Shown: piece after piece, positions 2,785 to 57,148 of the stretch | How positions within the stretch are numbered: position 1 is the first letter of the stretch | Layout: every line of letters begins with the position of its first letter | The notes under the pieces: generated by a model | Databases searched by the model: none | What the model saw: the letters and a program-made list of their open reading frames with translations, nothing else | Told to the model about the DNA's origin: nothing | Translations under genes and position numbers: made by a program | Source of the DNA: Methanomassiliicoccales archaeon UBA147 | Lineage (GTDB): Archaea > Thermoplasmatota > Thermoplasmata > SG8-5 | Length of the DNA stretch: 64,000 bases | NCBI GenBank assembly: GCA_002496385.1 | Contig: DAJR01000023.1 | Span: 3,651 to 67,650, forward strand | Direction of reading: 5' to 3'

Positions 2785-3132
2785 ATGGCAGATATGCGTC
2801 TTAAGGTTGTGGCTAGCAGCATCGACGGAAAAGGCATCGCAAAGCTGGACAGCGACAGCTGCCGCTCGCTGAAACTCGGGGATGGCCAGCAGATCATCGT
2901 TACCTATGGCGCTAAATCCCTGGAGCTTTTTGCGAAGCCGGACACGGTCTTTTCCCCTGCCACCATCCGGCTGATGAAGGTTGACATGAACACGCTGCGG
3001 GTAGAAACCGGCATGGAGGTCACCATTGCCAAGAAGAACGGCAGCGTCCCCGCGGAAAAGCCTGCCAAGGCCCCGAAGGGAAAAGGAAAGAAGAAGTCCA
3101 AGGCCAACGCAGCATCGCTTGACAGGTTCTGA
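2785..3132 (+). CDS. Stand-alone CDC48/VAT N-terminal (double-psi beta-barrel)-like domain protein with Lys-rich tail
   Basis: LKVVASSIDGKGIAKLDSDSCRSLKLGDGQQIIVTYG ... TIRLMKVDMNTLRVETGMEVTI matches the VAT-N pattern (LRV.EA...D.GRGIARID....LG...GD.V.I.G). Tail KAPKGKGKKKSK. Confidence 0.5.
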   Translation: MADMRLKVVASSIDGKGIAKLDSDSCRSLKLGDGQQIIVTYGAKSLELFAKPDTVFSPATIRLMKVDMNTLRVETGMEVTIAKKNGSVPAEKPAKAPKGKGKKKSKANAASLDRF

Positions 3133-3135
3133 ATA

Positions 3136-4188
3136 TTAAACAGTGTCTCCCTTTTTAATGCTCTTCAGGTCGTCTCCGGACCAGTCGTACACAAGGCGCT
3201 TCCTGCCCTTCCAGACTCCCTTCTGGAGAAGGTATCCGACAAGGAGAGGCAAAGCGATGGTCGCTTCCATGTTCACGGTCCGGTGCGTCGCGTCGGTGTG
3301 TACCTTGCCCCAGCTCTGCGCCTCCTCGAGCGTCGAGCCCGAGAGTCCGCCCCAGTGTGGCGAGTCCGTCGTCACCTGGATTGCGTAAGAATGCCCGTCG
3401 ATGCCCCTGTCGAACGTGTAGTTGGCCATGACCACCGCGTCATTCACCCAGTTCTTCGGCGTGCCGCCGCCGATGTATATCGCTGCGGTCTTCTTCGACA
3501 TGGCGATTATCTTGAGTATCTCGTAATTGTCCTTAATGGAGTCCAGCGTGACCCTCTGCTTCTTTAGGTTGTCCTTGTAGTACACCGTGAGGCCGATGCC
3601 GATGGAGGAGTCGTTCAGCGCCGGGGAGAACACCGGGACCCCGTACTTCCTGGCAGTGTGGAGGATCGAACTCTCATCGTCCGTAATGGAGCCCATAAAA
3701 TCGAGGATCTGGCGACTGGAGTAGAGCCCCGGCTTGAGCTTCTTCTCCAGCATCTTTCCGATGTATTTGTCGGTTTTTTCGAACATGTCCTCGTCCACAT
3801 ATGTGTCGTATATCCTGTCGATTTTCAGGTCATGGAGAACCTTGTCGTCCGCTGTCGGCGTGCCGACATAATGCTGACCGCCCATAGCCTGGTAAAAGTC
3901 CTGGTACATCACCGCGCCGGTGCTGGCGATCGCGTCCACAAGTCCATACTTAATCATGTCGCGGATGACCTTCCTCATCCCGCCCGCTATCAGGGCGCCG
4001 GAGAGCCCTACGATTATCGTGGGGCGCTCTTTGTCCATGAGCATTTTCTCCCAGACCCTGGCGCATATCCCCAGGTTGCGGCTCTGTATGCTGCTTCCCT
4101 GGAATGCGGTGACCAGCTGGTCTATTGTCTGGATGCGTTCCATGTCTATCTGGTTGACCGGGGTGCGAAGTATGTCCGACTTCTTCAT
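3136..4188 (-). CDS. dys: Deoxyhypusine synthase
   Basis: DHS family features (IIVGLSGALIAGGMR, IYIGGGTPKNW, HWGGLSGST). Start chosen at MKKSD; the alternative upstream ATG is at 4224. Confidence 0.85.
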   Translation of the reverse strand: MKKSDILRTPVNQIDMERIQTIDQLVTAFQGSSIQSRNLGICARVWEKMLMDKERPTIIVGLSGALIAGGMRKVIRDMIKYGLVDAIASTGAVMYQDFYQAMGGQHYVGTPTADDKVLHDLKIDRIYDTYVDEDMFEKTDKYIGKMLEKKLKPGLYSSRQILDFMGSITDDESSILHTARKYGVPVFSPALNDSSIGIGLTVYYKDNLKKQRVTLDSIKDNYEILKIIAMSKKTAAIYIGGGTPKNWVNDAVVMANYTFDRGIDGHSYAIQVTTDSPHWGGLSGSTLEEAQSWGKVHTDATHRTVNMEATIALPLLVGYLLQKGVWKGRKRLVYDWSGDDLKSIKKGDTV

Positions 4189-4340
4189 GGTAAAAGTCCT
4201 TCCATAAACCATTATCAAACTCACATATTTAGTGTTTATCCAAGTGTAACAAAATTTATTAAACCGCAGAGGCTACTGACCCCGGCCAACCCCGAGAGCG
4301 CAATCATCCGGAATTCTGCGGAAGGGGGCGGAGGTTCATC

Positions 4341-5885
4341 ATGGCATCGGTCAAGAACGCGGTAGGCCGCGAAATCCCAACGGAGCTGGAAGGTCGAAAG
4401 CTGAAGCCCTATCGGGGTCTTTTCAAAACATACCCGAGGGGCAGGAAGGCCGCAGGCTATTTCGGGAGGAACAAACCCGGGGACAGGAAGCTTCTGGAAT
4501 CCATCGATGAGGCGATACACGCATGCAAACTGAAGGACGGCCAGACAGTGAGCTTTCACCATCACCTCAGGGACGGCGATTATGTCGTGAACATGGTGAT
4601 GAAGGCAATCGCTGAGCATGGGCTCAGGGACATGGTGGTCGCACCGTCGGCTCTGTTCCCCTGCCATGAGCCGCTCGTGGAATTGATAGACCAAGGGGTC
4701 ATCCGCAGCATCGAGGGAAGCGTCAACGGTCCCATCGGGGATGCGATTTCCCATGGGCGCATGAAAGGCCTCAACATCCTCAGGTCGCACGGTGGCCGCG
4801 TCAGGGCAATAGAATCCGGCGAGCTCAAGATCGACGTTGCGTTCGTTGGCGCACCGACTGCAGACGCCCAGGGAAACATGAACGCCCTGCACGGGAAGAG
4901 CGCATGCGGGTTCCTGGGATATGCCGTTGCAGACTCCATATTCGCGAAAAAGGTGGTGGCAATAACGGACAATCTGGTGGATTACCCGGCACTTCCGATA
5001 CAGATCGCAGCCGATTACGTGGATTATGTGGTGAGCGTGCCCAGCATCGGGGATAACCAGAAGATAGTCTCTGGCACCACCAAGATCGCCACCGACCCGC
5101 AGAAGACAGGGATTGCAATGGCGGCCCTGGACCTGATGGTTCATGCAGGGATGGTAAAGGACGGAATGTCCTACCAGGCCGGGGCGGGCGGCATATCGCT
5201 CGCCACCACGAAGTTCCTTGGCGACTACATGAAGGCGCACAACATCGTCGCAGCATGGATGGACGGCGGCGTGACCGAGCACCTTATCCAGATACAGAGG
5301 AACGGCAACTGCAAGGCGATCCTCAACGGCCAGAGCTTTGACGTGCTCAGCGTGACAGACATGCTGACCAACCCCAACCATGTCCCGATAACCCCCAACT
5401 ACTATGCCAATCCCTGGAACAAGGGCGCGCTCGTCAACATACTGGACACAGTCGTTCTCGGGGGCACGGAAGCAGACATCGACTTCAACATCAATGTCAA
5501 CACCCATTCCGACGGCAGGCTGCTCCACGGCATAGGCGGGCACCAGGACACGGCAGCCGGTGCCAAGCTATCTATCATGATGATGCCGGTTTTCCGCAAG
5601 ACCAACGCCATCATCCGGGACCGCGTGACTACAGTTTCAGCGCCCCACCATTCAGTCGATGCCATTGTGACCGACCAGGGCATCGCAGTCAATCCAGCCA
5701 GGAAGGACCTGCTGAAGAAGCTCAGGGGCAGCCCGGTGAAGCTGGTGGACATAAAGGAACTTAGAGACATTGCTTACGCTGAGGCCGGAAAGCCCGAAGA
5801 ACCCCATTACCTGGACAGGATCGTTTCCGCGGTCCAGTTCAGGGACGGTACCTATCTCGATGTGATAAGACAGGTGAAGGAGTAA
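4341..5885 (+). CDS. citF: Citrate lyase alpha-subunit homolog (citrate CoA-transferase, CitF family)
   Basis: Collinear with E. coli CitF from memory: GQTVSFHHHLRDGDYVVNMVM, SHGGRVRAIESGELKIDVAFVGAP, DHGIAVNPAR, C-terminal FRDGTYLDVIRQVKE. Confidence 0.85.
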   Translation: MASVKNAVGREIPTELEGRKLKPYRGLFKTYPRGRKAAGYFGRNKPGDRKLLESIDEAIHACKLKDGQTVSFHHHLRDGDYVVNMVMKAIAEHGLRDMVVAPSALFPCHEPLVELIDQGVIRSIEGSVNGPIGDAISHGRMKGLNILRSHGGRVRAIESGELKIDVAFVGAPTADAQGNMNALHGKSACGFLGYAVADSIFAKKVVAITDNLVDYPALPIQIAADYVDYVVSVPSIGDNQKIVSGTTKIATDPQKTGIAMAALDLMVHAGMVKDGMSYQAGAGGISLATTKFLGDYMKAHNIVAAWMDGGVTEHLIQIQRNGNCKAILNGQSFDVLSVTDMLTNPNHVPITPNYYANPWNKGALVNILDTVVLGGTEADIDFNINVNTHSDGRLLHGIGGHQDTAAGAKLSIMMMPVFRKTNAIIRDRVTTVSAPHHSVDAIVTDQGIAVNPARKDLLKKLRGSPVKLVDIKELRDIAYAEAGKPEEPHYLDRIVSAVQFRDGTYLDVIRQVKE

Positions 5886-5889
5886 TCAG

Positions 5890-6960
5890 ATGGCCGAGAA
5901 ATGGGACACCAAGATAACAAGGGTCGAGCCGGACCGCCTGCTGATATACGGCTATCCGCTCAAGGACCTTGTCGAGCGCAAGACCCTCCTGGACGTGGCC
6001 CATCTCCTTGCAGCCGGCGACCTGCCCGACGTGAGGACCCGCGAGCAGTTACGGAAGATTGCACTCCAGGGCGCGATGCTCCCCTCTCCGCCGGTCGAGA
6101 GGAATCCCAAGGAGGACATCTCCAAGAGCCTGGCCAAATGCATCCTGATGGACGAGGAGCTGGTCGCATACCCCGACCGTCCCACCAAGAAGACAGCCTT
6201 CGCACTCGGCAGGATGGCCCGTTACCTTGCCAAACTGAACAATGCCGAATCGGCCATCGCCGATCTAACTGGTGACGAGGCCTTCTCCATAGTCCTATAC
6301 AAGGTTTTCACCGGCCGGCCCGAGACCGATGCCGCCAAAGCAAGGCTTTTGGAGGCGATGATAACGGCATGCGTGGACCACGGCGTCACGCCCCCGTCAG
6401 CCCAGGCGACCATAATCGCATCGTCCACCAGGGCGTCCTTCGAGGTTTGCATAGCCCAGGGCGTCGGCGCCATAACCGATGTTCACGGCGGCGCAGGGAC
6501 CAAAGCCGCAGCTTTCTTCTGGGAATGCACCGAGAACTCGCGCGATGTCAGCCTCAAATCAATAATCGAGGACTATGCCAGGCAGAAGAAGCGCATACCC
6601 GGGTTGGGGCACAGGGTCCACAACAACGACCCCCGGCGCGATGTACTCTGGAATCTGGCAATCGCCTCCAAGGTAGCGGGTGCCAATGTCGAGATGTCAA
6701 GGAACATATCCAGGGTGTTCACCGAGGTCACGGGAAAGAGCCTCCCCATCAATGTCGACGGGGTAATCGGGGCGATCGTGGCCGACCTCCGCCTGGACCT
6801 TTCCGCGGCGAAGTCCGTGTTCATACTCGGCAGGGTGGCGGGCCTATCAGCACACCACTATGAGGAACTCACCCGGCCTCAGATGAGACAGATCTCATTC
6901 GAGGATGCGGTTTACAAAGGCCCCGGCGAAAGGGCGGTGCCCGGGGGGGTATTGTTATAG
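5890..6960 (+). CDS. Citrate synthase-family short homolog (citryl-CoA lyase-like, CCL)
   Basis: Citrate-synthase catalytic signatures GLGHRVHNNDPR and DVHGGAG (cf. G.GHRVY..DPR and HGGANE). At 356 aa it is shorter than a canonical citrate synthase. Confidence 0.7.
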   Translation: MAEKWDTKITRVEPDRLLIYGYPLKDLVERKTLLDVAHLLAAGDLPDVRTREQLRKIALQGAMLPSPPVERNPKEDISKSLAKCILMDEELVAYPDRPTKKTAFALGRMARYLAKLNNAESAIADLTGDEAFSIVLYKVFTGRPETDAAKARLLEAMITACVDHGVTPPSAQATIIASSTRASFEVCIAQGVGAITDVHGGAGTKAAAFFWECTENSRDVSLKSIIEDYARQKKRIPGLGHRVHNNDPRRDVLWNLAIASKVAGANVEMSRNISRVFTEVTGKSLPINVDGVIGAIVADLRLDLSAAKSVFILGRVAGLSAHHYEELTRPQMRQISFEDAVYKGPGERAVPGGVLL

Positions 6961-6965
6961 AGCAG

Positions 6966-8846
6966 ATGAACCCGCTGAAGCACTGGATGTCAATGTATCC
7001 CGACAAGTTCGCGGAAGAAGACAGGATATTCAGCGGCATCCACAGGGGGGACCGCATATTCATAGGAACGGCCTGCGCCGAGCCCCAATACCTTGTCCAG
7101 GCCTTCATCAATTACATCGAGAGGAACCCGAACCAGATATTCGACGCCGAGATATTCAATGTCTGGACATTGGGAGTCGCCCCCTACAACGATGCCAAGT
7201 TCAAGAACAATTTCCGCCAGAATTCATTCTTTATATCGGCCAGTACCAGGGAAGCAGTGAACGAGGGGCTTGCAGATTACACCCCCACATTCCTCTCCGA
7301 AATCCCCGAGCTATTCAGAAAGCGGGCGATACCTCTCGACGTGGCCCTTGTCCAAACCACCCCGCCGGACCGGCACGGGTTCATGAGCTTCGGCGTAAGC
7401 GTGGACATAGTCAAGGCCGCGGTGGACGCCGCCACAGTTGTGATTGTCCAGGTAAACCCGGCCATGCCCCGTACCCACGGGGACGGGTACATCCACATTA
7501 GCCAGGTGGATTACGTCATCATCCGCGAAGAGCCCATCCTCACATACCTTGACGACGCGGACGACGACATAGCCCACAAGATAGGCAGCTATGTTTCCAA
7601 GCTAGTGGAGGACGGGGACACCATCCAGGTAGGCTACGGCGCCCTGCCCAATGAAATTTTGCGCAACCTCAAGGACAAGAAGCACCTGGGGATTCACACC
7701 GAGCTGATAAGCGACGGCCTGGTCGAGCTGATACAGGCCGGCGCGGTCGACAATTCCATGAAGACCATCAACAAGGGCAAGTCGGTCGCCACTTTCTGCA
7801 TGGGGACCAAGTCGGTGTATGACTTTGTCCACGATAATCCCTCAGTCCAGTTCAGGACCATAGATTACACCAATGACCCGCTGATTATTGCCCAGCACGA
7901 CAACATGGTCGCCATCAACAGCGCCCTGGAGATAGACCTCACTGGCCAGGCGACGGCCGAGTCCCTCGGAAAGAAATTCTACAGCAGCGTGGGGGGCCAG
8001 GCAGATTTCATGAGGGGCGCGATGCTGGCAAGAAACGGAAAGACCATTCTGACCATACAATCGACCGCCGACAACGGCAACATTTCAAGGGTCGTGCCAT
8101 ACCTCAAGGAAGGGGCCAGCGTCACACTCCACCGCGGCGATGTCCACTACGTCATCACGGAATACGGGATTGCATACCTGCACGGCAAGAACATCCGCGA
8201 GAGGGCGATGGAACTCATCTCGGTCGCGCACCCGAAGTTCCGCCCGGAGCTGATAAAACAGGCGAAGGCGCTCAACCTAATCTACAGCGACCAGGCATTC
8301 ATTCCCGGGAAGAAGGGCGAGTACCCCGAAGCGCTGGAAACCTACAGGACCACCGACCAAGGCCTGGAGATTCTTCTCAGGCCGGTGAAGATGAGCGACG
8401 AACCGCTCGTGAAGGAGTTCTTCTACGACCTGTCTGACAAGAGCATGTACAGGCGTTTTCTCTCTGTGAGGAAGGATATGCCCCACGAACGCCTTCAGGA
8501 ATTCGTGATAATCAACTACATGAAAGAGATGGTGATCGTCGCAACCGTCGGGAGCGAGGGCAAGGAGAAGATAGTCGGCATAAGTCAGTACGGCATCAAC
8601 GAGGGCACGCACACCGCGGAGGCCGCGTTCGTTGTTAGGGACGACTACCACGGAAAGGGCGTGGGCCATGAACTGCTCAAGTACCTCACCTATCTGGCAA
8701 AGAAGAACGGCCTGCTCGGGTTCACCGCCGAGGTGCTCGTCGAGAACACACCGATGCTCAGGCTGTTCGAGAAGATGGGCTTCAACATCGAGAAGCGCTC
8801 CAGCTCCGGCGTTTACGAGATGAAGATGCTGTTCAGGGAGGCCTGA
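6966..8846 (+). CDS. Acetyl-CoA hydrolase/transferase-family CoA-transferase domain fused to a C-terminal GNAT acetyltransferase domain
   Basis: The N-terminal ~430 aa resemble the 4-hydroxybutyrate/succinyl-CoA:acetate CoA-transferase family. The C-terminal ~160 aa carry GNAT features (RRFLSVRKD.., VVRDDYHGKGVGHELLKYL, FEKMGF). Confidence 0.7.
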   Translation: MNPLKHWMSMYPDKFAEEDRIFSGIHRGDRIFIGTACAEPQYLVQAFINYIERNPNQIFDAEIFNVWTLGVAPYNDAKFKNNFRQNSFFISASTREAVNEGLADYTPTFLSEIPELFRKRAIPLDVALVQTTPPDRHGFMSFGVSVDIVKAAVDAATVVIVQVNPAMPRTHGDGYIHISQVDYVIIREEPILTYLDDADDDIAHKIGSYVSKLVEDGDTIQVGYGALPNEILRNLKDKKHLGIHTELISDGLVELIQAGAVDNSMKTINKGKSVATFCMGTKSVYDFVHDNPSVQFRTIDYTNDPLIIAQHDNMVAINSALEIDLTGQATAESLGKKFYSSVGGQADFMRGAMLARNGKTILTIQSTADNGNISRVVPYLKEGASVTLHRGDVHYVITEYGIAYLHGKNIRERAMELISVAHPKFRPELIKQAKALNLIYSDQAFIPGKKGEYPEALETYRTTDQGLEILLRPVKMSDEPLVKEFFYDLSDKSMYRRFLSVRKDMPHERLQEFVIINYMKEMVIVATVGSEGKEKIVGISQYGINEGTHTAEAAFVVRDDYHGKGVGHELLKYLTYLAKKNGLLGFTAEVLVENTPMLRLFEKMGFNIEKRSSSGVYEMKMLFREA

Positions 8847-8848
8847 AC

Positions 8849-10978
8849 ATGGACCTCCCCGACATCAAATACCTCTTCGAGCCGAGGTCTGTCGCGGTCA
8901 TAGGCGCTTCCGGGGAGAAGAACAAGGTCGGCTGCAAGCTCATGGAGAACATGATGTCCATGGACTTCAAGGGGAAGATATATCCAGTCAACATCAAGGG
9001 CGGCGACATCATGGGGCTGAAGGTCTGCACGGACCTGGGGGAGATAGAAGGCCCGGTTGACATGGCCGTGATAGCCATACCCGCGAAATTCGTCTTCGGC
9101 GCAGTCGAGTCCTGCGCAAAGAAAGGCGTGAAGTTCCTTGTCATAATCACCTCGGGCTTCTCCGAGGTCGGGAACAATGCCGAAGAGAGGAGGATCGTCG
9201 AATACGCGCACCAACATGGGATGCGGGTCCTGGGTCCCAACATATTCGGGATATACTCGGGGAAGGTCGGCCTCAACGCCACTTTCGGTCCCAGGGACGT
9301 GAACCGGGGCAATGTTGCAATAGTGACCCAGAGCGGCGCCCTGGGCATCGCGATGATAGGCAAGACCGCCACGGAGAACATTGGCCTGAGCACGATAGTC
9401 TCGGTCGGCAACAAAGCGGACATTGAAGAGGCCGAACTGCTGGAATACCTGATTGACGACGACCAGACCAAGATCATCATGCTCTACATCGAGGGAGTTC
9501 ACAGGGGCGAGAGTATGGTCGCCCTCCTAAAGAAGGCCACCAAGAGGAAGCCAGTGATAGTCATCAAGTCCGGAAGGTCAAAGAGGGGTGCGCTGGCGGC
9601 GGCCTCGCACACCGGCGCGCTTGCCGGGGCGGACGAGATATTCGACTCCATAATGAAGCAGTGCGGCGTGCTACGGGCCGAGAGCCTCCAGGAGGCCTTC
9701 AACTGGTGCAAGTTCCTTGCCAACACACCTGTTCCGAAGGGCAGGAGCACCGTGATAATCACGAACGGCGGCGGCGTGGGGGTGATGGCGACCGATGCCT
9801 GCGAGAAGCACAAGGTCGACCTGTTCGACGACGCCGTCGCCACCAAGGAGATATTCGGCTCAGTCACCCCGGACTTCGGATCCACGAAGAACCCCATCGA
9901 TATCACTGGCCAGGCATTGGCCCATCATTACGACGGCGGCCTGGGCGCCGCCCTCAGGGACGAACGGATAAATGCGGTTATCGCACTGTACTGCCAGACC
10001 GCTGATTTCGACAGGACAACTTACGTCAATATGATAATGAAGAATGTCAAGGAGTACAGGGAAGGCGGCAAGCCCATAGTATTCTCGCTGGTCGGCGGCG
10101 AGGAGGTCGAGAACTGCATCAGGGAGCTCAGGCGCTCTGGCGCTCCTGTATTCGGTGATGTTTATGAAGCGGTCCAATGCTTCGGAGCACTGTTCAGGCA
10201 CCATGACCATCTCTCTCGCTCGGCCGAAGAGCCAGAGGAGCCTGACATGGATGTCGGATGCATGCATGACATAATATCCGGCGTCAGGGCGGATGGGCGC
10301 ACCTTCCTGCTCTCCCATGAGGCCCAGGCACTGATGAACGCAGCGGGAATCCCAGTCCCTCAGAGCAAGATAGCCGCCAACATCAGGGAGGCAATAGAGT
10401 TCGCAGAGAAAATCGGGTACCCTGTGGTCATGAAGATCGCTTCGAAGGACATCATACACAAGAGCGATGCGGGCGGCGTGGCGCTCGACCTTCTGAACAA
10501 GGAGGAGGTCATGGACGCCTACCAGGCCATCATCCGCAATGCGAGGAAATACAAGCCGGACGCAGTGATAAAGGGCGTCGAGATAGTCAGGATGATAGAG
10601 AAGGGCACAGAGACCATCATAGGTGCGAGGAGGGACAGGGCATTCGGCCCTGTCATCATGTTCGGGCTGGGCGGGATATACGTGGAGGTGCTGAAGGACG
10701 TGGCATTCCGCGCCCTACCGCTGGACCGCAGGGAGATAATAAGCATGCTCAAGGACATCCGCTCCTACTCCCTGCTGCTCGGGGTCCGCGGGGAAACCCA
10801 GCGCGACATCGGGAGCATCGTCGACACAATAATTAAATTGGGGAAGGTCATACGAAAATGCGGGGATATTTCGGACATCGAGATAAACCCGCTCGCGGTC
10901 TACGAGCAGGGGCAGGGCGCCATGGCGGTAGACGTCAGGATATTACTGGGTGACAGCAACAGGGGTGAAAAGAAATGA
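8849..10978 (+). CDS. acd: Acetyl-CoA synthetase (ADP-forming), fused alpha/beta (NDP-forming acyl-CoA synthetase)
   Basis: CoA-binding N-terminus (PRSVAVIGAS), ligase-CoA and succinyl-CoA-synthetase-like flavodoxin domains, C-terminal ATP-grasp (GYPVVMKIAS..HKSDAGGV). Start is 3 nt after the previous stop. Confidence 0.85.
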   Translation: MDLPDIKYLFEPRSVAVIGASGEKNKVGCKLMENMMSMDFKGKIYPVNIKGGDIMGLKVCTDLGEIEGPVDMAVIAIPAKFVFGAVESCAKKGVKFLVIITSGFSEVGNNAEERRIVEYAHQHGMRVLGPNIFGIYSGKVGLNATFGPRDVNRGNVAIVTQSGALGIAMIGKTATENIGLSTIVSVGNKADIEEAELLEYLIDDDQTKIIMLYIEGVHRGESMVALLKKATKRKPVIVIKSGRSKRGALAAASHTGALAGADEIFDSIMKQCGVLRAESLQEAFNWCKFLANTPVPKGRSTVIITNGGGVGVMATDACEKHKVDLFDDAVATKEIFGSVTPDFGSTKNPIDITGQALAHHYDGGLGAALRDERINAVIALYCQTADFDRTTYVNMIMKNVKEYREGGKPIVFSLVGGEEVENCIRELRRSGAPVFGDVYEAVQCFGALFRHHDHLSRSAEEPEEPDMDVGCMHDIISGVRADGRTFLLSHEAQALMNAAGIPVPQSKIAANIREAIEFAEKIGYPVVMKIASKDIIHKSDAGGVALDLLNKEEVMDAYQAIIRNARKYKPDAVIKGVEIVRMIEKGTETIIGARRDRAFGPVIMFGLGGIYVEVLKDVAFRALPLDRREIISMLKDIRSYSLLLGVRGETQRDIGSIVDTIIKLGKVIRKCGDISDIEINPLAVYEQGQGAMAVDVRILLGDSNRGEKK

Positions 10979-12009
10979 AACCAAGAATCGTGTTCGCATC
11001 AATGAGCGAGAGCGCGGGAAAGACCAGCATGATAGTCGGGCTCGGCAGGGCGCTGGGAAAGAGGATCGGATACATGAAGCCGATGGGCGACCGCCTCCTC
11101 TACCAGAAGAAGCGGCTCTGGGACTATGATTCCGCGCTGGTCACCAACATTTTCGGACTGAAGGGCAAGCCCGAGGATATCACAATGGGCTTCGAGCATT
11201 CCAAGCTCGGCTATATGTACGACGATGATGCCAGGAAGAAAAAGCTACTCGAAATCGCATCGGCGATCGAAAAGGACTGCGACATCCTGTTCGTGGAATC
11301 CGGGCGGAACCTCCGTTACGGTAGTTCGGTCAACCTGGATGCCATCTCAGTCGCCAAGGACCTGGATGCGAAGCTGGTGATAGTCCTGGCCGGCACCGAT
11401 GATACGATGATGGACGACATCGCCTTCATAAAGCGAACAGTCAACCATCAGGGCGTCAAGCTGATGGGCGTGATCATAAACAAAGTTGCGGATGCCGATG
11501 ACTTCACGGCGACGCATGTGGATGCCATCAAGGCAACCGGGATAGACGTGCTCGGCATGATCCCCCACCAGGAAACACTCACCCAGTTCTCGATGAACTA
11601 CCTGGCTGACATGCTGTTCGCAAAGGTGCTTGCCGGCGACGACGAGCTTCTCAAACCCGTGAAGAACATATTTGTGGGTGCAATGTCTGCGTCAGCCGCC
11701 CAGAGGGAGCCGGCCTTCAAGAAGGAAGGGAAACTGATAATCACCAGCGGCGACAGGAGCGATATCATTCTTGCGGCGTTGGAATCCGACACGGCCGGTA
11801 TAGTCCTCACAAACAACATCCTCCCGTCATCCAACATAATTTCCAAGGCGGCATCGGTCAAGATCCCTCTCTTGCTGGTCCACACGGACACCTTCCTCGT
11901 GGCCAAGCAGGTGGACGACGCCGTCCCGCTTTTGACAAAGGACAGCACGGCCAAGATAGAATTGCTCGAGCAAACCGCGCAGAAGCTGGCCCTTGACAAG
12001 TTCAGATAA
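10975..12009 (+). CDS. Phosphotransacetylase N-terminal-like protein (BioD/P-loop-like + DRTGG domain), no Pta catalytic domain
   Basis: ATGA overlap with acd. P-loop-like ESAGKTSM, then a DRTGG-type region (LIITSGDRSDI.., GIVLTNN). Confidence 0.65.
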   Translation: MKPRIVFASMSESAGKTSMIVGLGRALGKRIGYMKPMGDRLLYQKKRLWDYDSALVTNIFGLKGKPEDITMGFEHSKLGYMYDDDARKKKLLEIASAIEKDCDILFVESGRNLRYGSSVNLDAISVAKDLDAKLVIVLAGTDDTMMDDIAFIKRTVNHQGVKLMGVIINKVADADDFTATHVDAIKATGIDVLGMIPHQETLTQFSMNYLADMLFAKVLAGDDELLKPVKNIFVGAMSASAAQREPAFKKEGKLIITSGDRSDIILAALESDTAGIVLTNNILPSSNIISKAASVKIPLLLVHTDTFLVAKQVDDAVPLLTKDSTAKIELLEQTAQKLALDKFR

Positions 12010-12927: not shown

Positions 12928-13257
12928 ATGCCCGGAAGACGCGGAAGACACAGATGCCCCAGGTGGGTCACGGATGTGCCGGAAGTGCAATTTTTCAAAC
13001 CCGCTGGCGTGCCCCTGAGAACGCTGCAGGTGGTCGAATTGACCATCGAAGAACTTGAGACAATCCGCCTTGTGGACCTTGACGGTCTCACACAGGAGCA
13101 AGCGGCGGTTTCAATGGGGGTTTCCAGACGGACACTCTGGAACGACCTGATGGCCGCCCGAAAGAAGGTGGCCTTCGCCCTGGTCAATGGCCAGGCGATA
13201 CAGATCCGGGGAGGCGCCTACGCAGTCGCCGGGCAAACAGAAGAAAGGAGGAAATGA
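12928..13257 (+). CDS. DUF134-family predicted DNA-binding protein (sigma-70 region-4-like HTH)
   Basis: [29 protein letters not shown]...[29 protein letters not shown] matches the DUF134 N-terminal pattern MPRP.KCRRV...FKP.G.P with HTH. The ORF could also start at 12919. Confidence 0.7.
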
Positions 13258-13631
13258 ACATGCCATACGGAGACAGAACAGGACCCTGGGGACAGGGACC
13301 GATGACCGGCCGAAGGGCCGGATACTGCGCAGGAAACGATCGTCCAGGATATGCGAGCCCAATCGTGGGCCGCGGTTTTGGAATGGGTTACGGCCGTGGA
13401 ATGGGTCGCGGGAGAGGCTTTGGCCGGGGGTTCGGCAGGGGCTACGGCCGCGGTTTCGGCTACGGTCCGGCTTCGGAGCCGCCCGACTATTACCCGGCCA
13501 GGACCATACCGGTCCACAGGGAACCTTCGCCCGAGGAGGAGAAGATATTCCTTGAGAACCTGGTAAAGGACCTGGAAGCGGAACTGGAGGACGTGAAGGC
13601 GCGAATGAATGAACTGGCGAAGAAGGAGTAG
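13254..13631 (+). CDS. Gly/Arg-rich (GRG repeat) small protein with coiled-coil tail, DUF5320-like
   Basis: [25 protein letters not shown] then [34 protein letters not shown]-terminal [28 protein letters not shown]. Family resemblance is from memory. Confidence 0.6.
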
Positions 13632-13658
13632 TCAGTTCTCTTTATTTTTTGTGATTGA

Positions 13659-14465
13659 ATGAACGGAAACATCGCCGGCGGAAACACGATCGAGAAAAAC
13701 CTCGAAAGCATAGGTGACATACTGGTCGTGATGAGCGGCAAGGGCGGTGTTGGAAAGACAACGGTGGCTGTCAACCTCGCATGTGCATTGGGCGCACGCG
13801 GGAAATCCGTCGGGATACTTGATGCTGATTTCCACGGGCCCAATGTCCCGATGATGCTGGGAATGGAAGGCGGCACTCTCATGGCCGATGGCGAGTCCAT
13901 CGTTCCGATGATGGCGTTCAACGGTATGCCAGTCATGTCCACGGCATTTCTGATAAGCAATCCGGACATCCCCGTGATATGGCGCGGCCCGATGAAGATG
14001 CAGGTAATCAATCAGTTCCTGGGCCAGGTGCGATGGGGCAAATTGGATTACCTTGTCATAGACCTTCCGCCCGGGACAGGTGACGAATCGTTGAGCATAG
14101 CCCAGCAGATTCCCAGGGCGAAAGCCATCATTGTCACGACGCCGCAGGATGTGGCGCTGCTGGATTCCAGGAAAGCCGTGACCTTTGCCAGGCAACTCAA
14201 GATGCCCGTTCTCGGGATGATAGAGAACATGAGCGGTATGGAATGCCCGCACTGCGGCAAGGACATTGACCTGTTCAAGACGGGCGGCGGCGAGAGAGCC
14301 GCTGCCGAGATGGGCGTTCCATTTCTCGGCAGGCTTCCGTTGGACCCCCGGACTGTTGTGTCCGGGGATTCCGGGAAGCCTATCATGGCCGGGGACCTCG
14401 GGAGCAGCGTCGCGAAGGCGTTCAGTGAAATAGTGGAAAGAATCGAGGACAAAGGAGGAAATTGA
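13659..14465 (+). CDS. mrp: Mrp/NBP35/ApbC-family Fe-S cluster carrier P-loop ATPase
   Basis: GKGGVGKTT Walker A, DLPPGTGD, CxxC (CPHCG) cluster-ligating motif. Confidence 0.85.
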   Translation: MNGNIAGGNTIEKNLESIGDILVVMSGKGGVGKTTVAVNLACALGARGKSVGILDADFHGPNVPMMLGMEGGTLMADGESIVPMMAFNGMPVMSTAFLISNPDIPVIWRGPMKMQVINQFLGQVRWGKLDYLVIDLPPGTGDESLSIAQQIPRAKAIIVTTPQDVALLDSRKAVTFARQLKMPVLGMIENMSGMECPHCGKDIDLFKTGGGERAAAEMGVPFLGRLPLDPRTVVSGDSGKPIMAGDLGSSVAKAFSEIVERIEDKGGN

Positions 14466-14466
14466 C

Positions 14467-14655
14467 ATGAACGGAAATGGACAGGGCAGGGGAAACCGGG
14501 CCGGAGGCCAAGGCCGCGGGATGGGCACCGGCCAGGGACTGGGCGGAACATGCGTCTGCCCGAAATGCGGATATAGCGAACAGCACCAGAGGGGCGTGCC
14601 GTGCTTCGAGGTTAGATGCCCGAAGTGCAATATGCAGTTGATAAGAGGCAAATGA
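14467..14655 (+). CDS. Small Gly/Arg-rich protein with C4 zinc ribbon
   Basis: GQGRGNRAGGQGRGMGTGQG N-terminus; CVCPKCG ... CPKCN. Starts 2 nt after the mrp stop. Confidence 0.5.
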   Translation: MNGNGQGRGNRAGGQGRGMGTGQGLGGTCVCPKCGYSEQHQRGVPCFEVRCPKCNMQLIRGK

Positions 14656-14675
14656 GAAATTTGGAGGTATGAAAA

Positions 14676-16025
14676 ATGAAACAGGCAGACATCGTAATTG
14701 TGGGCGGAAGCGCGGCCGGGGTCCCGGCGGCAATTACCGCGAGAAGGCATTATCCAGACAAGAGCATCTTGCTGGTGAGAAAGGAACAACAGGTATTGAT
14801 ACCGTGCGGAATACCGTACATATTCGGAACAGTCGGAAAGCCCGAGAACAATCTCATCCCAGACAAGTCCCTGATTGACAACAAAGTCGAAATATTCGTG
14901 GACGAGGTCACTGGCATAGACAAAGCCGGGAAGACGCTGTCGACCGCAGGCGGCGAGACAATAGGGTATGACAAACTCGTCCTCGCAACCGGCTCCGAGC
15001 CTCTGGTTCCGCCGATTCCGGGCATGAACAAGGAAAATGTCTTCCCGATAAAGAAGGACATCGAATACCTTAGAAATTTCCAGAGCACGCTTGAGGGCGT
15101 GAAGGACTTGGTCGTCCTGGGCTGCGGTTTCATAGGCGTGGAATTCGCAGACGAATGCAAGAAGAACAGGGACATCAATGTCACGATAATCGAGATGCTG
15201 AACCAATGCCTTCAGATTGCATTCGGGGAGAGCGCCTGCAAATGCTGCAAGGAGATTGAGGACGCCCTGAAGAACCGTGGTATAAACATTGTCACCGAGG
15301 CGAAGCTGGAAGAGGTGCTCGGGGACGACAAGGTCACAGGTGTCAAACTGTCCGACGGCAGGGTGATCAAGGCAGACGCTCTCATTGTCGGCATCGGGGT
15401 GAAACCGAACATCGCGCTCGCCAAGGCCGCAGGCCTGGAGACCGACCCCGGGTTCGGCATAAAAGTCGACACGAACCAGAGAACGACCGACCCCAACATA
15501 TTCGCCGTGGGAGACTGCGCCAGTAAGTTCTCCTTCTTCTCCGGGAAACCGTCCAAGTTATGGCTCGCCTCCATAGCCACGCATGAGGCCAGGATAGCCG
15601 GTGCCAATCTGTTCAAGACCAGGCGCATCAACCAGGGCGTGATAGGCGTGTTCTCGACCGCGATAGACGGGTTAACCGTCGGCATGGCCGGAATGAGTTC
15701 GAAAGGCGCGGAGGAATTCGGATTCGAGGTTGTCACCGGAGAAGCGGAAGCTCCCAACAGGCATCCCGGGGGAATGCCGGGCATGGCAAAAATGTGGGTA
15801 CGCCTTAACTTCAACAGATCGAACGGCGAGATAATCGGCGGAGCGGTCTGCGGCGGCTCAAGCGCCGGCGAGGTCATAAACATAATCAGCGCCTGCATTC
15901 AGAAGAAGATGACGGCCGACGACATAGCAACATTCCAGATTGGGACGCATCCTGCGGTCACAGCATCGCCCATCGCCTACCAGTTGGTGAACGCGGCCGA
16001 GATGGCTTTGAAAAACATGAGGTAA
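14676..16025 (+). CDS. FAD-dependent pyridine nucleotide-disulfide oxidoreductase (NADH oxidase / CoA-disulfide reductase family)
   Basis: GGSAAG FAD motif; redox-active Cys motif PCGIPY; second Rossmann GCGFIGVE; C-terminal dimerisation domain. Confidence 0.8.
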   Translation: MKQADIVIVGGSAAGVPAAITARRHYPDKSILLVRKEQQVLIPCGIPYIFGTVGKPENNLIPDKSLIDNKVEIFVDEVTGIDKAGKTLSTAGGETIGYDKLVLATGSEPLVPPIPGMNKENVFPIKKDIEYLRNFQSTLEGVKDLVVLGCGFIGVEFADECKKNRDINVTIIEMLNQCLQIAFGESACKCCKEIEDALKNRGINIVTEAKLEEVLGDDKVTGVKLSDGRVIKADALIVGIGVKPNIALAKAAGLETDPGFGIKVDTNQRTTDPNIFAVGDCASKFSFFSGKPSKLWLASIATHEARIAGANLFKTRRINQGVIGVFSTAIDGLTVGMAGMSSKGAEEFGFEVVTGEAEAPNRHPGGMPGMAKMWVRLNFNRSNGEIIGGAVCGGSSAGEVINIISACIQKKMTADDIATFQIGTHPAVTASPIAYQLVNAAEMALKNMR

Positions 16026-16396
16026 TGCGCATGAAAATCGCAATAACATCGACAGGAAAGGAATCAGATGCCCAGATGGACCCAAGATTCGGCAGATGCC
16101 AGTACTTCATCATACTGGACCCGGACACGATGAAGTTCACGGCACATGACAATGCCGGCACGATGCAGAGGGGCGGTGCCGGGCCCATGGCAGCCAAGGC
16201 GATATCCGACCTTGGCGCTGAAATACTCATAACTGGCGATGTGGGGCCCAATGCCTTTGACGCACTCAAAGCCGCCGGGATAAAGGCCTACATTGGCGCA
16301 AGCGGCACGGTCAGCCAGGCAGTTCAGCAGTGGAAGGACGGAAAGCTCAGCGAGGCCGGGACTGCGAGCGTCGCATCCCACGCAGGAATGAGGTGA
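16025..16396 (+). CDS. NifX/NifB-like dinitrogenase FeMo-cofactor-binding-domain protein (Nitro_FeMo-Co family)
   Basis: MKIAITS..DPRFGRCQYFIILD...LITGDVGPNAFDALKAAGIKAY matches the NifX/NafY small-domain pattern. Confidence 0.7.
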   Translation: MRMKIAITSTGKESDAQMDPRFGRCQYFIILDPDTMKFTAHDNAGTMQRGGAGPMAAKAISDLGAEILITGDVGPNAFDALKAAGIKAYIGASGTVSQAVQQWKDGKLSEAGTASVASHAGMR

Positions 16397-16397
16397 T

Positions 16398-16802
16398 TTG
16401 ATGAAAGTTTGCATACCGACGATGGGAGACAGGGGAATGGATGAATCCGTGGGCGAGCATTTCGGAAGGGTTCCGACCTATACGCTTGTCAACACCGAAA
16501 CAGGAGAAGTCAAGGTCATCCAGAACACCACAACACACATGGGCGGCACAGGATATGCGCCGGACCTGATTTCGCAGCACGGCGCGGAAGTGATGCTGTG
16601 CGGAGGCCTGGGCAGAAAGGCCATCCAGATGTTCGAAGAAAAGGGCATCATGGTCTATGTCGGCGCAAGCGGCACAGTGGCTGATGCGATCAACCACTGG
16701 AAGGCCGGGCAGTTGCAGGCAGCCACCAATGAGACGGCGTGCCAGCAGCACGCATTTCGGGGCGAGGGCCACGGAGACGGCCACCACCATCACCACGAGT
16801 GA
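16398..16802 (+). CDS. Second NifX/NifB-like domain protein with His-rich C-terminal tail
   Basis: VCIPT..HFGRVPTYTLV...VMLCGGLGRKAIQMFEEKGIMVY; tail GEGHGDGHHHHHE. Confidence 0.7.
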   Translation: MMKVCIPTMGDRGMDESVGEHFGRVPTYTLVNTETGEVKVIQNTTTHMGGTGYAPDLISQHGAEVMLCGGLGRKAIQMFEEKGIMVYVGASGTVADAINHWKAGQLQAATNETACQQHAFRGEGHGDGHHHHHE

Positions 16803-16808
16803 GGGGGC

Positions 16809-17753
16809 CTGAAGACGTCCCTTGCCTATGGCCCGGTACCTTCAAGGAGGTTCGGGCGCTCGATAGGGGTGAGCCCCATTCCTCCCAAGGCTTGCACCTA
16901 CTCATGCATATATTGCCAGCTCGGACACACTACCGATCTGAGAGTGGCGAGGGACAGGTTCTTCGATCCCGCCCGGATTGAAAATGACATCGAAACCGCG
17001 GTTCTGGCCTGTAAAGAGAAAGCGGATTTCATAACGATGGTCGGAGACGGAGAGCCAATATTGTCCACGGACATCGGCCGGCTGATATCATACTGCAAGC
17101 GCCGATGGGACATCCCGGTAGGCGTGATAACCAACGGCTCACTGCTCTGGGATAACGAGGTAAGAAGCCAGCTTCATGAGGCAGACATTGTCTCAGTGAC
17201 TGTTTCCGCCGGCGAGGAGTCCGAGTTCAGGAAGATACACAGGCCGCATGGTAAACTGAAATTTCAAAAGGTAATGGACGGGATGCGTGAGTTCAGGAAA
17301 GATTTCAATGGAAAATTATGGGCGGAGGTCATGCTGGTCGCAGGCCTGAATGACTCAGACGGGGTTCTGCATTCAATCAAGGAACAATTGGATTCAATAT
17401 CCCCTGACAAAATCTTCATCGCAACGCCCACGAGACCGCCGGCCGAGAGCTGGGTAAGGCCGCCCGGAACCGACAGCATCCTGAACGCCGCCGCCATCCT
17501 CAACGGGTCGATAGAGATGACATTGCCGGAAACTGGAAACTTCGCAATAACCGGCGACGTAAAACATATTTCTGATACGATATTGCAGTTATGTTCCAGG
17601 CATCCGATGATGGAGCACCAGCTTAGGGAGATAGAGGGGCAATTGGACACGATATTCGTGGACGGGATGATTGCGGATGGGCTTGTGATATGGAAACCGC
17701 ATATGGGCATCCGATACCTTGTGCCAAATAATATGAAAGGGAGGCAAACATAA
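16809..17753 (+). CDS. Radical SAM protein (COG0731-like); start placed at a non-canonical CTG, the only canonical start being GTG 16869
   Basis: CTYSCIYC (CxxxCxxC). In frame upstream of GTG 16869 lies LKTSLAYGPVPSRRFGRSIG, matching the family's conserved N-terminus (..FGPVPSRRLGRSLG..). It is bounded by TGA at 16800 and has no ATG/GTG/TTG. A GAGGGGG SD-like sequence sits just before CTG 16809. Confidence 0.7.
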   Translation: MKTSLAYGPVPSRRFGRSIGVSPIPPKACTYSCIYCQLGHTTDLRVARDRFFDPARIENDIETAVLACKEKADFITMVGDGEPILSTDIGRLISYCKRRWDIPVGVITNGSLLWDNEVRSQLHEADIVSVTVSAGEESEFRKIHRPHGKLKFQKVMDGMREFRKDFNGKLWAEVMLVAGLNDSDGVLHSIKEQLDSISPDKIFIATPTRPPAESWVRPPGTDSILNAAAILNGSIEMTLPETGNFAITGDVKHISDTILQLCSRHPMMEHQLREIEGQLDTIFVDGMIADGLVIWKPHMGIRYLVPNNMKGRQT

Positions 17754-18595
17754 TGGGCATGAAAATTGCAATAGCAAGCGGCAAGGGCGGGACAGGCAAG
17801 ACAACCGTGGCGGTGAACCTGGCGCTGAGCCTGGGGAATGTCCAGCTCATCGACTGCGATGTGGAGAATCCGAACGGCCACCTGTTCCTGGGAAAGGAAC
17901 TGGAAGAGGTAGAACCCGTGAATCTGACTGTACCGCTCATAGACAAGGCAAAATGCACGAACTGCGGGAAGTGCGCCGAGTTCTGCCGCTACAACGCTCT
18001 GGTCACGATCAAACAGGCCACACTTTTCTTCCCGGAGATGTGCCACGGCTGCGGCGGCTGCACCCTGGTCTGCCCGGAGAACGCCATCAGCGAAGTTCCC
18101 AGGCCCATCGGCAAGATTTACCATGCAGATGTCGCGGGGATGGATTTCTGGTCAGGGCTGCTGAACATAGGCGAGCCCATGGCCACGCCTGTCATAAAGC
18201 GGCTGAAATACCATGTCGCTGCCTCGAGAACCGTGATACTGGACTCCCCCCCGGGCACTGCCTGCCCGGTGATTGAAACCATGTCCGACGCAGATTTTGT
18301 GATACTTGTAACCGAGCCCACACCATTCGGCCTTCACGACCTGAAACTGGCCGTCGAAGTGGTCCGGCTTCTGGGAATTCCCTTCGGCGTGATAGTTAAC
18401 CGCATGGGCTCGGGAGACGACAGGGTCCAGAGGCACTGCGGGGAAGAGGGCATTGAAGTCCTGATGGAGATACCCCAGGACCAGGGCATAGCCAGGCTTT
18501 ACTCGAAAGGCACGCCCTTCGTGCAGGAAATGCCCGAATGGAAGGCCAAGTTCAGGGACCTCCATGCTGGGATAATGAAGGTGGTGGGACAATGA
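17753..18595 (+). CDS. MinD/ParA-superfamily P-loop ATPase with embedded 2x[4Fe-4S] ferredoxin domain
   Basis: GKGGTGKTT; CTNCGKCAEFC and CHGCGGCTLVCP; TAATG overlap with the preceding gene. Confidence 0.75.
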   Translation: MGMKIAIASGKGGTGKTTVAVNLALSLGNVQLIDCDVENPNGHLFLGKELEEVEPVNLTVPLIDKAKCTNCGKCAEFCRYNALVTIKQATLFFPEMCHGCGGCTLVCPENAISEVPRPIGKIYHADVAGMDFWSGLLNIGEPMATPVIKRLKYHVAASRTVILDSPPGTACPVIETMSDADFVILVTEPTPFGLHDLKLAVEVVRLLGIPFGVIVNRMGSGDDRVQRHCGEEGIEVLMEIPQDQGIARLYSKGTPFVQEMPEWKAKFRDLHAGIMKVVGQ

Positions 18596-56638: not shown

Positions 56639-57148
56639 CTACAATGTCTTCGCGTACTCGAACACATTCCCGGCTTTCAGGATGTCCTTCTGAACCGTTG
56701 ACAGAGGCTTCAGCTTTCCGATCGCCTGCCCGCCTGCTTTGATTGTCCCGGCCTCCGAGTCCATTTCAACAATGTCTCCGGACTTGACCTTGGCCAGGTC
56801 GATATCCTTGATTGTCAGTATCGGGAATCCGGAATTGATTGCGTTTCGCTTGTATATCGCGCCGAACGATTGCGCAGCCACACATATTATCTTGAGCGCG
56901 GCAAAGCAATCCACCGCATGCTGCCTTGAAGAACCCGAACCGAAGTTCTGGCCCGTGATGACGATATCCCCGGGCTGCGCCTTCTTGGCGAAATCCCTAT
57001 AGCCCTCCAGGTTGTCGAAGGCATACTGCCCCATTTCCGCAATTTCAGTGATTGCCAGGTACTTGTTGTGGAATATCATGTCCGTGTCTATATCGTCAAT
57101 AAGCTTGCCCTGCCTCAGCAGCACCCAGGCCCTTCCTTTGAATATCAT
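56639..57148 (-). CDS. leuD: Aconitase-family hydro-lyase small subunit (LeuD / homoaconitase small subunit, archaeal type)
   Basis: ~170-aa swivel-domain protein with GDNIDTD-like DDIDTDMI and GQNFGSGSSR. Confidence 0.8.
   Translation of the reverse strand: MIFKGRAWVLLRQGKLIDDIDTDMIFHNKYLAITEIAEMGQYAFDNLEGYRDFAKKAQPGDIVITGQNFGSGSSRQHAVDCFAALKIICVAAQSFGAIYKRNAINSGFPILTIKDIDLAKVKSGDIVEMDSEAGTIKAGGQAIGKLKPLSTVQKDILKAGNVFEYAKTL

Follow-up and report, generated by a model that had tools for sequence, protein, structure and literature searches.

A CitF–citrate-synthase-family gene pair in an uncultured Thermoplasmata archaeon as a candidate citrate lyase independent of ATP and acyl carrier protein

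How might the α subunit of citrate lyase operate at a locus that offers neither the carrier protein nor the lyase subunit of the classical enzyme? This question is raised by a 64,000-nt stretch of contig DAJR01000023.1 from Methanomassiliicoccales archaeon UBA147 (hereafter the window, whose coordinates are used throughout and whose open reading frames (ORFs) were called in all six frames), where a gene for CitF, the citrate lyase α subunit or citrate CoA-transferase, is directly followed by a gene for a protein of the citrate synthase (CS) family. Citrate cleavage is a branch point of the reductive tricarboxylic acid (TCA) cycle and of citrate fermentation, and few enzymatic solutions to it are known, namely the three-subunit citrate lyase CitDEF, ATP-citrate lyase (ACL), the citryl-CoA synthetase/citryl-CoA lyase couple (CCS/CCL), and reversed citrate synthase. 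We consider it fairly probable that the pair is a two-enzyme citrate lyase working on free CoA thioesters, with neither ATP nor an acyl carrier protein (ACP). If this is true, a route driven by a CoA-transferase is to be added to the list.

The two proteins of the pair

The first ORF spans the entire Pfam profile of CitF (PF04223, positions 1–466 of 466, E 4e-153) and scores 559 bits with the NCBIfam model TIGR01584 for citF, above its curated cut-off of 501, which bears out the clear CitF homologue noticed in an earlier, sequence-only reading of the locus. The closest solved structures are CitF structures (1xr4, with 441 bits, and 2hj0), and in an alignment of 93 CitF sequences the protein agrees with all 66 invariant columns. 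The protein shares 90% identity with the CitF of the metagenome-assembled genome (MAG) UBA280. The preprint by Zinke et al. places UBA280, together with SG8-5 and UBA147, in the order SG8-5, described there as non-methanogenic, putatively peptide-degrading, and basal to the Methanomassiliicoccales.

The second gene starts after a gap of only 4 nt and encodes the CS-family protein that the sequence-only reading had recognized from its GLGHRVH..DPR and HGGA motifs. These motifs are indeed present (VHGGAG at residues 198–203, GLGHRVH at 238–244, and DPR at 247–249), along with VDH (162–164), INVD (287–290), GR (314–315), and TRP (328–330). In this way, all catalytic and oxaloacetate-binding residues common to citrate synthases and CCLs are found (H164, H199, H241, R249, D290, R315, and R329). 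Six of them are invariant in a family alignment of 56 sequences, while R329 lies outside the invariant or nearly invariant columns of that alignment. The Pfam Citrate_synt profile (PF00285) is matched with 138 bits (E 6e-40), above the family-level threshold.

Within this large family, the comparisons point to the CCLs and the lyase modules of ACL rather than to citrate synthases. The best NCBIfam models are CCL subfamilies, all below their cut-offs (NF004866, 197 vs 245; NF004869, 186 vs 212), whereas the models of citrate and methylcitrate synthases give 93.5 vs 421 at best and never more than 94 against cut-offs of 332–594. Among proteins of known structure, the top match is the CCL of Hydrogenobacter thermophilus (6hxp, 131 bits, E 5e-37, residues 123–351), while citrate synthases score at most 65 bits and the lyase modules of Chlorobium and human ACL 33–45 bits. 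Relatives at 51–77% identity in a large protein database are stand-alone Thermoplasmata proteins. The source annotation of relatives is "citrate/2-methylcitrate synthase". AclA-type fusions (Ligase_CoA plus Citrate_synt) from Hodarchaeales, Bipolaricaulia, and others reach about 50% identity at 97% coverage, and a stand-alone homologue in a Planctomycetota MAG (locus L014) also shows 50%. By these scores and identities, the protein falls in the clade formed by CCLs and ACL lyase modules and does not group with bona fide citrate synthases (EC 2.3.3.1/2.3.3.16).

The attribution to a Hydrogenobacter-type CCL in the sequence-only reading thus holds as to the clade but not as to the form, since the protein is long and AclA-like, with 57% identity over 358 residues to the C-terminal module of the AclA of locus L007 and 36% to the Hydrogenobacter CCL. 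Nor is it "short", as it had been labelled: it has 356 residues, against about 260 in the short CCLs. Its AlphaFold (AF2) model (pLDDT 93.3) has a full citrate-synthase fold, which superposes over the full length on citrate synthases of about 370 residues (TMq 0.70–0.77, 17–22% identity) and, with 35% identity across 233 columns, on 6hxp. Compared with the short CCLs, about 95 additional residues are inserted, and these restore the complete fold.

Partners of CitF across genomes

To place the pair among other CitF neighbourhoods, loci were collected by exact-protein look-ups, a scan of GTDB species genomes, and a scan of JGI metagenomes, and neighbouring genes were classed with phmmer and profile hidden Markov models (HMMs). 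The peptide patterns of the metagenome scan were very general, and the matches listed are mostly CitFs at 44–57% identity with few close relatives. A CCL-type gene adjoins CitF in at least 21 distinct loci, at least eight of them from the metagenome scan. The long form occurs in ten (the window, L007, L008, L010, L012, and L016–L020), whose CitFs are 64–90% identical to that of the window, with the exception of the divergent CitF of L007 (46%). At least 11 loci (L096, L097, L101, L102, L115, L121, L127, L140, L151, L163, and L178) have a short form of 256–274 residues, 47–48% identical to the Hydrogenobacter CCL. Both short forms tested (L096 and L097) pass the NCBIfam CCL cut-off (299 vs 245), and L097 lies on CP070739.1, an apparently complete chromosome of 3.2 Mb from a Methanomassiliicoccales-labelled assembly. 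The CCL partner of CitF is drawn from two different branches of the family. The neighbour-joining tree of CitF is approximate and was not used to count how often the pairing arose independently.

The genes that flank the pair differ from locus to locus. They include AMP-forming acetate–CoA-ligase-like genes (L007, L008, and L009), a small CoA-binding protein gene (L010), and, in many loci, the gene of a protein with an HDIG domain, while in L101 the order is inverted to CCL–HD–CitF. Acetate-activating enzymes recur beside the pair, as an ADP-forming acyl-CoA synthetase (ACD) in the window and L016–L019 and as the AMP-forming ligase-like proteins just mentioned.

The other partner of CitF is CitE. 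It abuts CitF in 66 of the 73 bacterial genome loci, usually together with CitD, CitDE being found within 5 kb in three more, and it accompanies CitF in 62 of 80 metagenome loci among the matches listed. With two further loci from look-ups added to these 131, CitE abuts or lies near CitF in at least about 133 loci, one archaeal example of a canonical CitD–CitE–CitF cluster being that of Theionarchaea (L098). Among the loci examined in the two scans and the look-ups, none carried a CCL-type gene and CitE together; the lone CS-family match beside a CitE locus (L075) has 28 bits, under the scoring threshold used. Since the CitE-paired and CCL-paired loci never overlap, CCL and CitE (with CitD) are, by gene content, alternative and mutually exclusive partners of CitF.

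The absence of the classical components was also searched for directly with custom HMMs built from 131 CitE, 103 CitD, 32 CitX, 34 CitG, and 38 CitC sequences. None of them gave a match in the six-frame ORFs of the window, even at E ≤ 10, or in any of the CCL-paired loci, some of which were inspected with 10-kb flanks, and phmmer with the CitC, CitD, CitE, CitX, CitG, and CitT proteins of E. coli found nothing in the window. What the sequence-only reading had stated for 12 kb, namely that CitD, CitE, and the prosthetic-group genes are lacking, is in this way widened to 64 kb. Moreover, the window contains no CCS- or AclB-type gene, no ATP-grasp/citrate-binding subunit, and no SCS-α-like domain (SCS, succinyl-CoA synthetase) according to Pfam and phmmer. 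The gene identities, the operon structure, the conserved pairing, and the exclusion of CitE and CitD are observed features of these loci.

Several neighbourhoods link the pair to citrate. Locus L096 reads aconitase (large and small subunits), HD protein, CitF, CCL, aconitase (large and small subunits), and isocitrate dehydrogenase. L163 has the order HD–CitF–CCL followed directly by a fused aconitase-family gene (confirmed with Pfam), and L140 has a similar layout with a 586-residue ORF of equal size in the aconitase position. In L014, the CS-like homologue stands beside a split ACL, an aconitase, and an oxoacid:ferredoxin oxidoreductase, in a cluster of the reductive TCA type. In L007 (positions 3119–11062, GCA_964354755.1), an AMP-forming acyl-CoA ligase, an ATP-grasp AclB (426 residues), and an AclA (712 residues) are inserted directly upstream of CitF, the stop codon of AclA overlapping the start of CitF; the CS-like gene downstream of this divergent CitF is 77% identical to that of the window. 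Because of these aconitase, isocitrate dehydrogenase, AclB–AclA, and reductive TCA contexts, it can be argued that the substrate of the pair would be citrate rather than another carboxylate.

A conserved HDIG-domain protein of about 175 residues adjoins CitF in at least 11 CCL-paired loci and in at least about 16 CitE-paired loci (coordinates in Table 1). Full-length matches to the HMM of this family score 216–265 bits, and one match truncated by the contig end 129 bits. The protein is also found within the CCS/CCL/aconitase cluster of the Planctomycetota MAG (L014) and seems to go with all three kinds of citrate-cleavage cluster.

Other arrangements of CitF were met in bacteria. The bacterial CitFs nearest to the archaeal ones (L023–L033 and L100, from Calditrichota, Cytophagia, Cloacimonadota, and similar groups) are preceded by a single ORF of about 400 residues, which in L100 is a CitD–CitE fusion (ACP plus HpcH_HpaI); a fusion of this type has been reported for Ignavibacterium album. 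A few bacterial CitFs lack both CitE and a CCL-type gene in the flanks covered (L099, positions 7001–8545; L030; L055; L072), that of L099 being flanked by a lipoate-protein ligase-like gene and an unannotated 305-residue ORF, and these may represent other, orphan uses of CitF. A comparison of specificity positions in 13 CCL-paired and 71 CitE-paired CitFs brought out only M276/F and A280/T, beside the QxGxGG motif. They were rejected as a functional signature of the pairing with CCL and are regarded as a lineage signal, since QAG is also found in bacterial CitFs paired with fused CitDE.

The proposed reaction and its alternatives

From the gene content we infer the substrate use, the reaction direction, and the physiological role of the pair as follows. 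CitF (EC 2.8.3.10) would transfer CoA from acetyl-CoA to citrate, giving (3S)-citryl-CoA and acetate, and the CS-family protein, acting as a CCL (EC 4.1.3.34), would then split (3S)-citryl-CoA to give acetyl-CoA plus oxaloacetate. In the net reaction, citrate would yield acetate and oxaloacetate, with acetyl-CoA as a catalytic component and neither ATP nor ACP involved. The aldolase-type CitE would thus be displaced by an unrelated, non-orthologous lyase of CS fold, and CitD, together with CitX, CitG, and CitC, would be dispensed with. The ACD could re-activate the acetate released, in which case the sum (citrate + ATP + CoA → acetyl-CoA + oxaloacetate + ADP + Pi) would equal the ACL reaction. 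Alternatively, it could run towards acetate and ATP in a fermentative, amino-acid-degrading lifestyle, and either role would agree with the repeated presence of acetate-activating enzymes next to the pair.

Chemically, the two steps would fit together. The pro-S arm of citrate is the site of action of citrate lyase and of ACL/CCL alike, and both handle a (3S)-citryl thioester; the stereochemistry is therefore compatible. The isolated α and β subunits of citrate lyase were reportedly found by Dimroth and Eggerer in 1975 to be active on CoA derivatives. Free acetyl-CoA with citrate, and also acetyl-dephospho-CoA, are given as CitF substrates in the EC 2.8.3.10 table of a review (PMC8085960).

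The sequence-only reading had already suggested that CitF acts on free CoA thioesters and that its CS-like neighbour cleaves citryl-CoA, and all the sequence-level comparisons made here favour this idea: the grouping of the second protein with CCL and ACL, the adjacency kept in at least 21 loci despite varied flanks, the exclusion of CitE and CitD, and the aconitase and isocitrate dehydrogenase contexts. Some points nevertheless weigh against it. The search for cit genes covered 64 kb of a MAG-type contig and related loci, and completeness among relatives, UBA280 for example, is about 78%. Neither a citrate transporter nor an oxaloacetate decarboxylase was detected in the window with phmmer or Pfam. 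In the comparison of 13 with 71 CitFs, no function-specific signature of a switch to free CoA emerged. The 356-residue protein remains below every NCBIfam CCL cut-off (197 vs 245) and its model has a complete CS fold; for these two reasons it could hydrolyse citryl-CoA and be a true citrate synthase.

This last possibility leads to the first of the competing readings, in which the CS-like protein is a self-sufficient, divergent citrate synthase for glutamate biosynthesis and CitF is functionally separate, either a CoA-transferase for another carboxylate or a recycler of citrate or citryl-CoA side products. The full-length fold of the model, the presence of all catalytic residues common to both enzymes, the passed Pfam Citrate_synt threshold together with the missed CCL cut-offs, and the annotation of the relatives as citrate/2-methylcitrate synthases would agree with it. 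However, the protein falls far below the cut-offs of the citrate synthase equivalog models, its closest relatives are CCL and AclA lyase modules, and clustering with bona fide citrate synthases was not seen. Furthermore, CitF is also paired with truncated CCLs of about 260 residues in which part of the CS fold is missing and which share 47–48% identity with a characterized CCL, and the reading leaves the adjacency across at least 21 loci unexplained. We regard it as distinctly improbable. It is very improbable that the pair runs in reverse as a thioester-conserving citrate synthase, condensing acetyl-CoA with oxaloacetate to citryl-CoA, which with acetate would give citrate and acetyl-CoA. Both steps are reversible in principle, the aconitase and isocitrate dehydrogenase of some loci would draw citrate towards 2-oxoglutarate, and the 64 kb of the window revealed no conventional citrate synthase. 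The equilibrium constant of citrate lyase, of the order of 0.1–1 M, favours cleavage at physiological concentrations, so that the reverse citrate synthase shunt envisaged in the sequence-only reading is thermodynamically unattractive and was rated unlikely. In the opposite sense, the constant for citrate formation from acetate and oxaloacetate is of the order of 1–10 per M, and synthesis is therefore strongly disfavoured at micromolar oxaloacetate and millimolar acetate. Moreover, the ACL beside the pair in L007 and the split ACL relatives point to the cleavage direction.

Two further readings call on genes other than the pair, and we give very little credence to either. A canonical CitDEF, with citD, citE, citX, and citG at other sites of the genome and a CS-like neighbour that is there by coincidence, would be in line with a view limited to 64 kb, with the few bacterial CitFs that have CitDE about 5 kb away or none nearby (L049, L052, L053, L030, L055, and L072), and with the canonical archaeal cluster of Theionarchaea. 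Against this, CitD, CitE, CitX, CitG, and CitC remain unmatched in the window and in at least 21 CCL-paired loci, CitE nearly always abuts CitF in the other loci, and the adjacency of CCL is too widely kept for coincidence. The ACD could otherwise serve as a citryl-CoA synthetase and form, with the CS-like lyase, a new ATP-citrate lyase on an ACD scaffold to which CitF would be accessory. The ACD shares the operon with the pair, retains its catalytic histidine motif, and belongs to the same superfamily of NDP-forming acyl-CoA synthetases as SCS, CCS, and ACL. Nevertheless, it bears no citrate-binding domain of the ACL/CCS type according to Pfam, and we know of no ACD that acts on citrate. This assignment was rejected because ACD is missing from most pair-bearing loci (L008–L013, L020, L096, L097, L101, and the metagenome loci).

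Beyond the two-enzyme citrate lyase itself, a wider and rather unlikely extension can be formulated. CitF–CCL plus an acetate-activating enzyme (ACD or an AMP-forming acetyl-CoA synthetase) might constitute a modular, freely reversible substitute for ATP-citrate lyase and a fourth route of citrate cleavage beside ACL, CCS/CCL, and reversed citrate synthase, serving a reductive or branched TCA pathway in uncultured lineages such as the non-methanogenic Thermoplasmata, with the HDIG protein as an additional, dedicated component. If so, 2-oxoglutarate derived, for example, from amino acids could be reductively carboxylated to citrate and then converted to acetyl-CoA, and cleavage would be decoupled from the expenditure of ATP.

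The operon, the rest of the window and known citrate-cleaving systems

Five plus-strand ORFs follow one another between 4341 and 12009, with successive gaps of 4, 5, and 2 nt and a final overlap of 4 nt, and a Shine–Dalgarno-like GGAGG precedes citF and the CS-like gene alike. The outer neighbours are, by Pfam, a divergent deoxyhypusine synthase gene upstream and a convergent gene for an Lrp-type regulator downstream. By this layout, citF and the CS-like gene head a tightly packed five-gene operon. The unit of two genes described in the sequence-only reading is retained as a pair but does not end at position 6960. The intergenic region before citF is its putative promoter and 5' leader (Table 1).

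Table 1. Coordinates of the operon elements in the window and of the HDIG-protein genes at other loci.
Feature	Position	Strand	Basis
Region before citF, bounded on its other side by the divergent deoxyhypusine synthase gene (intergenic; putative promoter and 5' leader)	4225..4340	+	sequence inspected
A/T-rich, TATA-like box AAAATTTATTAAA	about 4250-4262	+	sequence inspected
Ribosome-binding site GGAGGT of citF	4330-4335	+	sequence inspected
CitF (alpha subunit of citrate lyase; citrate CoA-transferase of class II), 514 aa	4341..5885	+	TIGR01584, PF04223, 1xr4
Citrate-synthase-family protein, CCL / ACL-lyase-module clade, long form, 356 aa	5890..6960	+	PF00285, 6hxp, AclA identity
CoA-transferase–GNAT fusion, 626 aa	6966..8846	+	PF02550 + PF13336 + PF00583
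ADP-forming (NDP-forming) acyl-CoA synthetase (ACD), fused alpha-beta, 709 aa	8849..10978	+	PF13380 / PF13607 / PF19045 / PF13549
P-loop (AAA_26) + DRTGG protein, 344 aa	10975..12009	+	PF13500 + PF07085
HDIG protein genes	L012:5913-6443; L096:6464-6991; L101:6464-6991; L098:9896-10411; L014:3146-3721; about 20 further loci		

As a trio, the three genes downstream of the pair are confined to the closest relatives of the window (L007 and L016–L019). The third encodes a fusion of a CoA-transferase of the acetyl-CoA hydrolase/transferase family (residues 1–440) with a Pat-like GNAT acetyltransferase (about 465–612), the nearest NCBIfam models, butyryl-CoA:acetate CoA-transferase and Pat, both being matched below their cut-offs. 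Its predicted role is acyl-CoA/acetate exchange and/or acetyl-CoA-dependent protein acetylation, and it may sense acetyl-CoA and regulate enzymes that act on citrate and acetate. A homologue of this fusion (631 bits) is encoded on the minus strand of the Planctomycetota MAG (L014, 12518–14452), 3 kb from the split ACL. The fourth protein, the ACD, reaches 504–588 bits with NCBIfam models of the ACD type, all under the equivalog cut-offs, and would catalyse the interconversion of acetate, ATP, and CoA with acetyl-CoA, ADP, and Pi. Since the catalytic histidine motif SHTGAL (H254) is kept, it is probably active as a synthetase. For the same reason, the idea that genes three and four are two parts of a Pat-like acetyltransferase whose ACD-like domain is inactive was rejected. 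The fifth protein matches the N-terminal part of the PRK05632 phosphate acetyltransferase, i.e., the regulatory domain of Pta, and presumably serves the ACD as a regulatory partner.

The remainder of the window holds various unrelated sets of genes. The class I/II aminotransferase at 19905–21179 (minus strand), whose aspartate-aminotransferase signature is weak, has an orthologue directly after the CitF–CCL pair, in convergent orientation, in SG8-5 (L012/L013), and others nearby in L007 and L010. Through this enzyme, the oxaloacetate produced could be connected with aspartate. The plus-strand cluster at 12976–19455 contains DUF134, DUF5320, Mrp/ParA-type and Fer4–ParA P-loop proteins, two small Nitro_FeMo-Co (NifB/NifX-like) proteins, a pyridine-nucleotide disulfide oxidoreductase, and a radical-SAM protein, and this cluster also follows the pair in L010. 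On the minus strand at 56639–58384, a split aconitase-family enzyme of LeuCD/HacAB type (large subunit of 411 and small subunit of 169 residues) passes generic family models only and could be an isopropylmalate isomerase, a homoaconitase, or an aconitase. A low-GC stretch at 34000–56700 (0.39–0.52 vs about 0.56 elsewhere) is rich in glycosyltransferases and sugar epimerases/dehydratases and also encodes a Wzt-type ABC ATPase, along with many methyltransferases and radical-SAM enzymes. It probably represents an island of genes for cell-surface glycans and may have been acquired by horizontal transfer. Other Pfam content of the window includes a ribulose-phosphate epimerase and an ABC transporter.

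A full-text literature search found no description of the CitF–CCL pair, and the papers that mention both citF and CCL genes assign them to separate systems. The gene context supports well the view that the pair represents a non-orthologous displacement of CitE and CitD by a lyase of CS fold. If the proposal is true, the lyase module of ACL can be fed by an ATP-independent partner, and "orphan" citF genes that annotation pipelines score as incomplete citrate lyases are explained. The pair also bears on the divergence of CCL, ACL, and citrate synthase.

Compared with known systems, the pair shares with bacterial CitDEF (EC 4.1.3.6; E. coli, Klebsiella) the CitF protein itself, 44–54% identical between the window and bacteria, and would share the net conversion of citrate into acetate and oxaloacetate in two steps, an acyl exchange and then the splitting of a citryl thioester. 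However, the window and the related loci are devoid of the CitD carrier, of CitE, a lyase of HpcH/HpaI fold, and of CitX, CitG, and CitC; the predicted lyase is a CS-fold protein instead, and the carrier would be free CoA or a similar free thiol in place of a protein-bound prosthetic group. With the CCS/CCL couple of Hydrogenobacter thermophilus (EC 6.2.1.18 and 4.1.3.34), the proposed reaction has in common the second step and its enzyme family, with free citryl-CoA passing between two enzymes. It would differ in that citryl-CoA arises by CitF-mediated CoA transfer from acetyl-CoA and not by an ATP-dependent, SCS-like synthetase, and in that acetate and oxaloacetate are formed without net acetyl-CoA; moreover, the CCL of the window has 356 residues and not about 260. 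ATP-citrate lyase (AclBA/ACLY, EC 2.3.3.8) possesses a homologous lyase module, its C-terminal citrate-synthase-homology domain, and the summed stoichiometry would be equal when the ACD is included. In the window, unlike in ACL, this module stands alone beside CitF, with AclB and the SCS-α-like domain neither fused nor adjacent. A precedent in archaea is an earlier speculation on Thermoproteus tenax, in which CitE, a CoA-transferase, and an acetyl-CoA synthetase would cleave citrate (relayed in PMC1403158). Both proposals envisage an archaeal, ACP-independent citrate lyase assembled from an incomplete cit set and an acetate-activating enzyme, but they are mirror images of each other: T. tenax keeps CitE without CitF and CitD, whereas the window keeps CitF, with CitE apparently replaced by a CCL of citrate-synthase fold.

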